Positions 43,488 through 45,063 of a stretch of DNA of 64,000 bases are shown piece by piece (positions within the stretch are counted from its first letter, which is position 1; every line of letters begins with the position of its first letter). The notes under the pieces are model-generated. The model was not told where the DNA came from. It saw only the letters and a program-made list of their open reading frames with translations, and did no database searches. A program made the translations under genes and the position numbers. Source of the DNA: Firmicutes bacterium UBA5493 (GTDB taxonomy: Bacteria > Bacillota > Limnochordia > Darwinibacteriales > Darwinibacteriaceae); contig DIPH01000015.1 in the NCBI GenBank assembly GCA_002424045.1, positions 70,550-134,549 of the forward strand, in the 5' to 3' direction.

Positions 43488-43516
43488 TTGACTACCATTT
43501 CTGGCTAAGCTATAAT
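43488..43516 (+). promoter_or_regulatory. Sigma-70-type promoter (TTGACT-17 nt-TATAAT)
   Basis: Consensus -35 and -10 hexamers with 17-nt spacer, about 20 nt upstream of the FMN riboswitch. Confidence 0.7.
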
Positions 43517-43535
43517 GAATGTGAAAATTGCATAC

Positions 43536-43735
43536 GAAATTCTTCGGGGCGGGGTGAAATTCCCCACCGGCGGTTACAGTCCGCGAGCAATCCGCTTTTT
43601 GGTTGTTGATTTGGTGTAATTCCAAAACCGACAGTATAGTCTGGATGGGAGAAGAAAAGACAGAACGATGCTCGTTCTGCCTGTAGCTTTTGTAAGCGTC
43701 AAGCAACCTGAGGAATTTTTGGGTTGCTTTTTTCT
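43536..43735 (+). promoter_or_regulatory. FMN riboswitch (RFN element) with intrinsic terminator expression platform
   Basis: CTTCGGGGCGGGGTGAAATTCCCCACCGGCGGT ... CCGACAGTATAGTCTGGATGGGAGAAG closely matches the B. subtilis ribD leader. Followed by hairpin AAGCAACC-N13-GGTTGCTT plus TTTTTTCT. Confidence 0.9.
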
Positions 43736-43791
43736 GTGGACGTTTATTTTGTGTGTGAAGGTTTCGATGTTCAATTGGAAGGAGTCAAATT

Positions 43792-45063
43792 ATGTTCAAG
43801 AAATCAAAGCTGTCTGTTGTCGTGTTCACGATCGTCACAGGGTTCTTGTTCGCAATGGCCGGCGCCAAAGCGAATGTCACTACCATCAATTACTGGCATT
43901 ACCTCAGTGGAGATAATGCTGCGATCCATGAACAGATGGTGCAGGAGTTTAATGCCCAACATCCCCACATCCAAGTTGAAATGCTCTACACTGGGAACCA
44001 GTTTGTAGCGAGAGACAAACTTCTAGCTTCAGTGGCGGGAAGCGTGACCCCCGATGTGGCCTTAGTGGACCAGTTTTGGCCCCCCCTCATGGTTTCCAGC
44101 GGAGCGCTGGTGCCTCTACGGGATTTTGTAGACCCCGAAGAGTATTTGCAGGACTATAGCCAGGTTTCCAGAGACACTGTAACAGTCCATGGAGAAGCTT
44201 GGACAGTTCCCTTTTCCTTAAGCAACCAGATCCTTCTTTACAATAAAGATAAGTTCAGAGAAGTGGGTCTGGATCCAGAAAAGCCTCCCACAACATGGGA
44301 TGAATTGGTGGAGTACGCCAAAGTTCTTACACGGGACATTGACGGTGACGGACGCATAGATGAATGGGGTGTAAACTTCACAACTAGAGCGAATCTAGGC
44401 TCCATGTATGCTTTTGTAACTTTCTTGTGGCAAGCGGGAGGCGAGCTGTACAGCGAAGACTACAGTGAAGCAACCTTCGACGACGCTACAGCCCGAGACA
44501 CGGTGCAGTTTTGGATTGATCTTGCACATAAGCACCAAGTGCTCTCCCTCTCTCCGCCAGCTGATGGATTTGAGATTGGCCGCATTGCGATGCAGTATTC
44601 AAGCACATCATCCATCGCTGCCACCAAGAACAAAGTGGACTTTGATTTAGGGGTAGCGGCACTACCAGGGAAGAAGAACACAGTTACAGGCGTAGGTGGC
44701 AGCAGTTTGGCCATTTTCAAGACAACGTCTGAGAAACAAGCAGCAGCCTGGGAATTTGTGAATTGGATGTCCAGTGCTGAAAACAATCTGAAGTGGAGTA
44801 TGGCCACGGGGTACATTCCCCTGAGGCTTTCAGTGCGAAAGTCCGCCACCTACCAGCAATACCTGGCAGATGAGCCCCATATGCAAATCGTACTTGAGCA
44901 GTCAGATTACGCAAGGGCCAGACCAAATACTGTAAGCTATGCAGACCTATCCCGCATTTTAGGTGTGGCAGTGGAGGAAGCACTCTACGGCAACACCAAT
45001 CCAGAACCGATTCTCAATCATGCCGTTAGAGAAGCAAACACCTATATTCAAGCCCTGGACTAA
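43792..45063 (+). CDS. Extracellular solute-binding protein, family 1 (CUT1-type ABC substrate-binding protein), orphan
   Basis: 423 aa. Signal peptide ...AMAGAKA|NV without lipobox. SBP_bac_1-like. Ribosome-binding site GGAAGGAG. No permease or ATPase genes adjacent. Confidence 0.85.
   Translation: MFKKSKLSVVVFTIVTGFLFAMAGAKANVTTINYWHYLSGDNAAIHEQMVQEFNAQHPHIQVEMLYTGNQFVARDKLLASVAGSVTPDVALVDQFWPPLMVSSGALVPLRDFVDPEEYLQDYSQVSRDTVTVHGEAWTVPFSLSNQILLYNKDKFREVGLDPEKPPTTWDELVEYAKVLTRDIDGDGRIDEWGVNFTTRANLGSMYAFVTFLWQAGGELYSEDYSEATFDDATARDTVQFWIDLAHKHQVLSLSPPADGFEIGRIAMQYSSTSSIAATKNKVDFDLGVAALPGKKNTVTGVGGSSLAIFKTTSEKQAAAWEFVNWMSSAENNLKWSMATGYIPLRLSVRKSATYQQYLADEPHMQIVLEQSDYARARPNTVSYADLSRILGVAVEEALYGNTNPEPILNHAVREANTYIQALD

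Follow-up and report, generated by a model that had tools for sequence, protein, structure and literature searches.

A conserved FMN riboswitch precedes an orphan CUT1-type binding protein, a candidate flavin receptor of uncultured Limnochordia

Genes repressed by flavin mononucleotide (FMN) riboswitches are almost always genes of riboflavin synthesis or uptake, and riboswitch-guided comparative genomics has found most of the bacterial riboflavin transporters, namely RibU, RibM, ImpX, RibN, RibXY, RibZ and RibV. Here, in a 64,000-nucleotide stretch of contig DIPH01000015.1 of Firmicutes bacterium UBA5493, a metagenome-assembled genome of the Limnochordia (the stretch is referred to as the window), we describe a transcription unit in which a canonical FMN riboswitch precedes a single gene encoding a substrate-binding protein (SBP) of the CUT1 type, a receptor of ATP-binding cassette (ABC) importers that here has no permease or ATPase gene beside it. 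The pairing is conserved at every close homologue examined and absent from more distant, operon-encoded relatives. By the same comparative logic, the locus points to the CUT1 family, which is absent from the flavin-transporter lists that we found. We propose, with somewhat more confidence than doubt, that the unit provides a periplasmic flavin receptor made only at low FMN, which would hand its ligand to CUT1 permeases and a shared MsmX-type ATPase encoded elsewhere. What would be new is the receptor family and the orphan arrangement; flavin uptake under the control of an FMN riboswitch is known.

A canonical FMN riboswitch in the leader of the SBP gene

A first-pass annotation, made from the letters alone, had read in this locus a consensus sigma-70 promoter, an unmistakable FMN (RFN) aptamer, a strong intrinsic terminator and, as the only gene of the unit, a 423-residue SBP_bac_1 protein, and each of these elements is borne out. 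The sigma-70-type promoter (43488–43516, + strand) consists of a −35 box TTGACT (43488–43493) and a −10 box TATAAT (43511–43516) separated by a 17-nt spacer, with 11 of 12 consensus matches; in an alignment of 11 distinct orthologous leaders, the TTGAC and TATAAT boxes are identical throughout. The covariance scan that the annotation had suggested places an RF00050 aptamer at 43536–43660 (+) with 121.2 bits (E = 9e-28; gathering score, 66.2 bits), spanning model positions 1–138 of 138, and this is the sole Rfam match in the window. Given this E-value and the recurrence of the aptamer before every orthologue, a chance match can be set aside. All highly conserved consensus positions of RF00050 are matched in the cmscan alignment; the motifs CGGGGC, CCGGCGG, GGUG and CCGACAG are unchanged across the 11 orthologues, as is GGAUGGGAG save for G/A at one position, and the P4-type stem varies in sequence with compensatory changes.

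Known specificity-altered FMN riboswitch variants, which no longer bind FMN, carry G-to-A mutations at ligand-contacting nucleotides (PMC6298564). We considered G10, G11, G32, G62, G84, A48, A85 and A99 (3F2Q numbering; the correspondence between motifs and numbers is our own indirect assignment), and the G-rich motifs that are altered in those variants are intact in the window aptamer. An altered variant driving efflux through the neighbouring major facilitator superfamily (MFS) gene was ruled out on the grounds that the aptamer is canonical and the MFS gene lies on the other strand behind its own terminator.

Downstream of the aptamer lies a linker hairpin (43658–43682, +) in which four consensus pairs are held by 8–11 of the 11 leaders despite sequence variation, and which bears a large internal deletion in the leader of one locus, L112. 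The intrinsic terminator follows at 43701–43735 (+), with a stem of 12–13 bp (hairpin 43701–43729) and a T-run; each of its 12 consensus pairs is paired in at least 10 of the 11 leaders, with two double changes between AU and GC. The Shine–Dalgarno sequence GGAAGGAG (43777–43784, +) stands 7 nt before the ATG at 43792, and its AGGAG core is found in all 11 leaders, shifted in the alignment in two of them.

That the riboswitch might belong instead to an upstream or antisense gene, the condition on which the annotation said its reading would fall, is excluded: the aptamer lies on the SBP strand between the SBP promoter and the Shine–Dalgarno sequence, and it stays with the SBP gene at six loci where the upstream gene differs (L107–L112). 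The upstream cupin gene of the window (+; ends at 43477) was considered as a member of the unit and discarded, as the promoter lies past it and it is missing from L107–L112, which keep both riboswitch and SBP gene.

A predicted long-range antiterminator using the 5′ strand of P1

Folding of the full leader, from the predicted start to the T-run, gave a minimum free energy structure of −71.1 kcal/mol built around a 13-bp helix, GAAAUUCUUCGGG/CCUGAGGAAUUUU, which takes the place of both P1 and the terminator. Its predicted 5′ arm (43536–43548, +) is the 5′ strand of P1 plus J1/2, and this pairs across about 170 nt with a predicted 3′ arm (43707–43719, +) in the 5′ half and loop of the terminator hairpin, within which lies GAGGAAUU (43710–43717, +). 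When P1 is forced, the aptamer and terminator form instead, at about −68 kcal/mol.

The same alternative is open to the orthologues. The terminator loop and upper 5′ arm carry GA(A/G)GAAUU in 11 of 11 leaders, an unusual element to find conserved in a terminator loop, and it is complementary to the P1 5′ strand (AAUUCUUC). The alternative helix is possible in every leader, with 11–14 bp in ten and 9 bp in that of L112; across the set, the two states are no more than about 11 kcal/mol apart, and mostly no more than about 6. The leaders thus combine a covarying terminator with an alternative antiterminator helix in 11 of 11 cases and states of similar energy, which is the expression platform looked for behind an RF00050 aptamer. 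Computed folding and conservation together give this leader the anatomy of a transcriptional OFF switch, for which the canonical aptamer would supply the response to FMN.

In the mechanism that we envisage, transcription would start at the near-consensus promoter and the nascent leader would fold as a canonical FMN aptamer. As long as P1 is held by the aptamer, the 12–13-bp hairpin and T-run would form and transcription would end before the gene; with P1 free, its 5′ strand (AAUUCUUCGGG) would pair with CCUGA(A/G)GAAUU in the 5′ half and loop of the terminator, and the resulting 11–14-bp antiterminator would disrupt the terminator and permit read-through to the Shine–Dalgarno sequence and the SBP gene. 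FMN binding should favour termination, such that the protein would be produced only when cellular FMN is low.

In the usual design of FMN riboswitches, the 3′ part of the aptamer pairs with the terminator. The ribD and ribU (ypaA) leaders of Bacillus subtilis resemble that of the window in placing a canonical RF00050 aptamer before an intrinsic terminator as a transcriptional OFF switch, but the antiterminator proposed here uses the 5′ rather than the 3′ strand of P1, and the gene under control is of a new type. Apart from this long-range antiterminator, which is somewhat unusual, the riboswitch is an unremarkable representative of RF00050.

The riboswitch–SBP pairing is conserved across one clade

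The annotation had also called for a search of other genomes for the same pairing. We gathered homologous loci across a range of identities and scanned them with Rfam. An RF00050 aptamer is present at all 15 distinct loci where the identity of the SBP to the window protein is 77% or more (the window itself, equal to L001/L002, with L007, L021, L023, L104–L112, L120 and L135, the last an N-terminal fragment); at the 14 other than the window it is full length, scores 114–122 bits and lies about 100–130 nt upstream of the start codon. RF00050 is absent from all of the checked loci, about 21 in number, whose SBP is 47–72% identical (L010, L012–L015, L018, L019, L113–L119, L121–L125 and L133). A clade-specific covariance model built from 11 of the aptamers recovered the window at 158 bits and found no match in about 1.02 Mb around 97 other CUT1 SBP loci, including 76 more distant ones. 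A pattern scan of genome contigs with YNKDxF and GLDPExPP, motifs that proved too generic, yielded one close relative, L023, among the matches listed; the other 79 loci listed are paralogues of 26–37% identity and served only as negative controls.

The two groups also differ in context. In a tblastn context table, the riboswitch-linked SBP gene is an orphan at 15 of 15 loci, with no adjacent permease or ATPase gene, and what follows it is in every case the same, namely convergent genes for MFS and HlyIII/TrhA proteins. The annotation's statement that no permease or ATPase gene is adjacent extends in the window to 20 kb on either side, where no BPD_transp_1 or ABC_tran gene occurs. Every unregulated homologue of 47–72% identity that was checked has two BPD_transp_1 permease genes before it and an AP_endonuc_2 gene after it, usually with a class II ketose-bisphosphate aldolase, a Zn-dependent dehydrogenase and a SorC- or RpiR-type regulator nearby. 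A pairing that is conserved throughout a clade and absent from its unregulated paralogues argues, in the classical manner of comparative genomics, for a role in flavin supply. Flavin uptake is accordingly a plausible function, one suggested by the conserved association with an FMN riboswitch and by the predicted location of the protein.

A CUT1-type binding protein with a predicted export signal

The gene (43792–45063, +) encodes a 423-residue SBP of the CUT1 type (SBP_bac_1/SBP_bac_8, UgpB-like). A Pfam scan of the protein returned only SBP_bac_1 (145.6 bits against a cut-off of 26; E = 4e-42) and SBP_bac_8 (134.2 bits against 27; E = 1e-38), with no BMP and no NMT1-type domain. The protein is UgpB-like in a broad sense only, as it reaches 101.7 bits against a cut-off of 411 for the NCBIfam UgpB equivalog NF008211. 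An AlphaFold2 model from an 84-sequence alignment has a predicted local distance difference test score (pLDDT) of 93.8, and Foldseek relates it to MalE, UgpB and other CUT1 SBPs with TM-scores of 0.76–0.89, its neighbours all being cluster-D CUT1 SBPs. The ligands of these neighbours are very diverse (cyclic and linear oligosaccharides, tagatose, glycerophosphocholine, glycerol-3-phosphate in the case of UgpB, and dinucleotides), and no flavin-binding protein occurs among the neighbours found by PDB sequence search or Foldseek.

The protein begins with a Sec signal peptide (43792–43872, +; residues 1–27, MFKKSKLSVVVFTIVTGFLFAMAGAKA, followed by N) in which a positively charged n-region and a hydrophobic core precede an AXA site (cleavage-type AKA before N), with no lipobox cysteine. 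Limnochordia belong to the diderm Firmicutes and possess an outer membrane (PMC11456536). A cleavable Sec signal without a lipobox, in a diderm host, makes a free periplasmic SBP plausible. One orthologue, that of UBA5420 (L023, 6001–6090; 91% identical), carries a lipobox-like IVTGC in its signal peptide where the window protein has IVTGF; the other orthologues, like the window protein, are without this motif. An identical protein is found on contig DIQA01000064 of the metagenome-assembled genome GCA_002424175.1 and on several contigs from digester and fermentation metagenomes; NCBI assigns the close relatives to Limnochordia bacterium or Firmicutes bacterium, and the NCBI and JGI annotations of the protein are generic only.

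Probable origin from an operon-encoded SBP

In a neighbour-joining tree, the riboswitch-linked clade is monophyletic (100 of 100 bootstraps) and nested in the operon-type family, which indicates that an operon-encoded SBP gene was duplicated or relocated, probably just once, and captured the riboswitch. Its identity to the operon-type SBPs reaches 72%. Within the clade, dN/dS (the ratio of nonsynonymous to synonymous substitution rates) is 0.04–0.08, the same as in the operon-type genes, with dS up to saturation; the orphan is thus a working protein whose pairing with the riboswitch has been kept over considerable divergence.

The parent-type operons offer some guidance to the ancestral ligand. 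Their permeases score best against UgpA and UgpE and their AP_endonuc_2 protein best against the phosphodiesterase CbiR and then sugar epimerases, in each case below the curated cut-offs, and their aldolase passes the threshold of a ketose-bisphosphate aldolase subfamily. From these similarities, the parent ligand would be a sugar, a polyol or possibly a polyol-phosphate diester. Genes resembling GrdB and GrdE (glycine/sarcosine/betaine reductase family) and betaine-aldehyde dehydrogenase recur beside operon-type SBPs (L012–L014, L018, L019–L020 and L141), and these Grd-like neighbours together with the CbiR-like partner may hint at a choline- or betaine-containing phosphodiester, such as glycerophosphocholine, as the parent substrate. 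At L141 (GCA_003500025.1, DNRJ01000021), nearly all genes of the parent-type operon and its neighbourhood are split into two open reading frames (the SBP, the aldolase, the GrdB-like and GrdE-like genes, the aldehyde dehydrogenase and enzyme I of a phosphotransferase system), reflecting either a frameshift-rich assembly or wholesale pseudogenization.

A probably retouched binding site

Residues were compared between 14 SBPs of the riboswitch clade and 30 of the operon type, 13 at 60–72% and 17 at 46–51% identity. Five positions that are conserved in all operon-type proteins are fixed differently in the riboswitch clade (M139V, M143L, V205M, N221S and T342I), and F119L, F/Y149L and F224Y further separate the clade from its nearest relatives. 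The motifs W35-H36, D93-Q94-F95-W96, S144-N145, Y206, W213-Q214, G302-G303, Y341, R377-P378-N379, Y383 and S387 are invariant. Contacts were anchored by hand on shared motifs (YNKD, QAGG, AM and PN), an approximate procedure; an automatic alignment to Escherichia coli MalE was discarded as mis-registered, placing E111, for example, on K152. With this anchoring, we take S144 to correspond to the MalE contact E111 and Y206 to MalE Y155; the substituted positions 143 and 205 flank them, and position 342 directly follows the invariant Y341. To judge from these alignments, the pocket seems to have been retouched rather than rebuilt.

Riboflavin has a ribityl chain, and FMN and flavin adenine dinucleotide (FAD) have a ribityl phosphate or pyrophosphate. 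An ancestral polyol or polyol-phosphate site may plausibly have been re-used for flavins, and such re-use would explain why the contact motifs are unchanged.

Proposed function and alternative explanations

On the reading that we favour, the SBP would be exported by its cleavable signal peptide to the periplasm of a diderm Limnochordia cell and bind riboflavin, FMN or FAD there, the UgpB-like ancestry making the phosphorylated forms plausible. The flavin would then pass to two CUT1 permeases and an MsmX-type ATPase whose genes lie elsewhere; the likeliest partners may be the permeases of the parent-type operon, the source of the duplicated gene. The orphan would have arisen once from an operon-encoded SBP for a sugar, polyol or phosphodiester, gaining a riboswitch and a handful of substitutions by its binding-site motifs. 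In its fullest form, the proposal is that a CUT1 SBP turned flavin receptor recently and in a single step (duplication, riboswitch capture and about 5–8 substitutions), may read the ribityl or ribityl-phosphate moiety with the ancestral site, and feeds the ancestral or another shared CUT1 translocator; this fuller history we put forward tentatively, as possible but a little short of an even chance. Sharing of an ATPase within the genome would fit the observation that the other CUT1 module of the window is also without an ATPase gene.

Several points weigh against a flavin receptor. The riboswitch-linked and unregulated clades have the same predicted contact motifs, without variation, and differ in only 5–8 neighbouring residues, so that turning a site for a sugar or phosphodiester into one for a flavin would need subtle reshaping. 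No partner permease or ATPase for the orphan was identified, and the orphan and parent-type permeases were not shown to share a genome: look-ups of the proteins P0087 and P0025 led to other assemblies, with NCBI accession blocks that do not overlap. The clade is narrow, moreover, and has been observed only in metagenomes of the digester type.

The same invariance of contact motifs, together with an identity to operon-type SBPs of up to 72%, would be expected if the orphan still bound the ligand of its parent (a sugar, polyol or phosphodiester) and the riboswitch coupled carbon or phosphorus uptake to flavin status, whether by supplying pentose or polyol-phosphate precursors or because breakdown of the compound depends on flavoenzymes. 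We hold this to be unlikely, if the most serious of the alternatives. A switch that turns OFF at plentiful FMN has the wrong polarity for flavoenzyme-dependent catabolism; the orphan has not kept the parent operon's catabolic genes and permeases beside it; and new residues became fixed, on the branch leading to the clade, at five sites that are invariant elsewhere. No FMN riboswitch on sugar uptake, furthermore, is known to us or was found in the literature searched.

The regulatory evidence applies equally to a flavin-related ligand other than riboflavin, FMN or FAD, salvaged from the community, with candidates including 6,7-dimethyl-8-ribityllumazine, 5-amino-6-ribitylaminouracil, the deazaflavin FO (abundant near methanogens), lumichrome and roseoflavin. 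The samples come from methanogen-rich anaerobic digesters, and descent from an SBP of the sugar, polyol or phosphodiester type suggests recognition of a polyol chain; nothing specific points to any of these compounds, however, and salvage of an intermediate would need a partial riboflavin pathway, so we regard this as less probable than retention of the parent ligand. Less probable again, in our estimate, is a role outside transport, as a periplasmic flavin store, a redox-shuttle carrier or the partner of a sensor such as a histidine kinase or chemoreceptor. Orphan SBPs such as LuxP, ChvE and TorT act as sensor partners, the absence of an adjacent permease or ATPase gene at 15 of 15 loci would suit such a function, and about 4 kb downstream, where synteny is conserved, there is a SpoOB_a/HATPase_c sensor kinase gene. 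In close relatives, however, synteny extends over the entire downstream block, so that the proximity of the kinase weighs little, and four unrelated genes on both strands intervene; component sharing is common in CUT1 systems, and repression by FMN fits supply better than sensing. Separation from the permeases that all of its relatives have could, finally, mark the SBP as the decaying remnant of a broken operon, or the riboswitch as a relic. This is effectively refuted by the low dN/dS and reading frames intact up to saturated dS, and by the conservation of promoter, aptamer, antiterminator, terminator and Shine–Dalgarno sequence with compensatory changes.

Relation to known flavin importers

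The claim that no known flavin importer uses a CUT1 SBP stands after our search of the literature on FMN-regulated genes and riboflavin transporters, in which we found no earlier report of an FMN riboswitch paired with a CUT1 SBP. No CUT1 protein is listed in a 2015 survey of such genes and transporters, which describes in Deinococci a monocistronic, FMN-riboswitch-controlled ribY and so offers a precedent for an orphan SBP, of a different family, under FMN control (PMC4418817). As part of the RibXY(Z) systems, the Deinococci ribY resembles the window gene as a lone SBP gene behind an FMN riboswitch, with the permease presumed elsewhere, encoding a flavin-repressed ABC receptor. RibY, however, belongs to the NMT1/THI5-like family (COG0715, nitrate/sulfonate/taurine type) and was shown to bind flavins, whereas the window protein is of the SBP_bac_1/SBP_bac_8, UgpB/MalE-like type of CUT1 cluster D, and flavin binding is for it a prediction.

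RfuABCD of Treponema pallidum and Spirochaeta is likewise an ABC riboflavin uptake system with a dedicated extracytoplasmic binding protein, and in Spirochaeta smaragdinae an FMN riboswitch stands before the Rfu homologue (PMC4418817). RfuA is a lipoprotein of the BMP family (PnrA-like), and its operon also encodes a dedicated ATPase and permeases; the window protein, in contrast, is an orphan non-lipoprotein of another fold family. The best NCBIfam, PDB sequence and fold matches of the window protein are UgpB of the UgpB/UgpAE systems of E. coli and Mycobacterium tuberculosis and other cluster-D CUT1 SBPs, a family that tolerates bulky head groups such as those of glycerophosphocholine, dinucleotides and oligosaccharides. 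Unlike UgpB proper, the window protein falls far below the equivalog cut-off and has no Pho-type context, and no UgpB-type protein is known under an FMN riboswitch.

If flavin binding is borne out, the protein would bring to three the SBP families independently recruited for flavin uptake and would add a new family of receptors for vitamin B2 or flavin cofactors, showing that ABC importers of the sugar type can be turned to cofactor scavenging by means of an orphan receptor. It would also be a compact natural example of specificity evolution in binding proteins, the 65–72% identical unregulated paralogues and few clade-specific residues making an unusually tractable pair for mapping specificity residues, and would bear on vitamin cross-feeding in anaerobic digesters, the home of these uncultured diderm Firmicutes. 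Should the ligand prove to be the ancestral one, an FMN riboswitch on the uptake of a non-flavin nutrient would itself be unusual.

Genomic neighbourhood

The downstream MFS_1 gene (45105–46268, − strand) is convergent with the SBP gene, as the first-pass annotation had stated. Between the two lies a perfect hairpin (45093–45121), read directly from the sequence as AAAA-GGCTCAGG-TTACA-CCTGAGCC-TTTT, with flanking A- and T-runs and the MFS stop codon inside the loop. It looks like a bidirectional terminator closing both the SBP unit and the MFS unit; a pattern scan for terminators did not list it, probably since the A- and T-runs lengthen the stem.

No riboflavin biosynthesis genes, RibU or CUT1 ATPase were found in the rest of the window. 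A second CUT1 module (15671–18839, −) comprises an SBP gene (17511–18839) and two permease genes (16528–17397 and 15671–16528), has no ATPase gene, and adjoins a ROK regulator (13114–14349), an SDH_alpha-like gene (14367–15647) and a GntR/FCD regulator (18975–19619). Its permease pair (15671–17397) was dropped as a partner of the orphan, having an SBP of its own and being only 31–32% identical to the parent-type permeases.

An AP_endonuc_2 gene (xylose-isomerase-like TIM barrel; 55587–56450, −) shows no tblastn homology to the AP_endonuc_2 gene that follows the operon-type SBPs. The window further contains a hexuronate catabolism cluster (4486–10096, −) encoding the glucuronate isomerase UxaC, a 6-phosphogluconate-dehydrogenase-like protein, a PfkB kinase and the tagaturonate epimerase UxaE, and, further upstream, a branched-chain-type ABC importer (127–4082).

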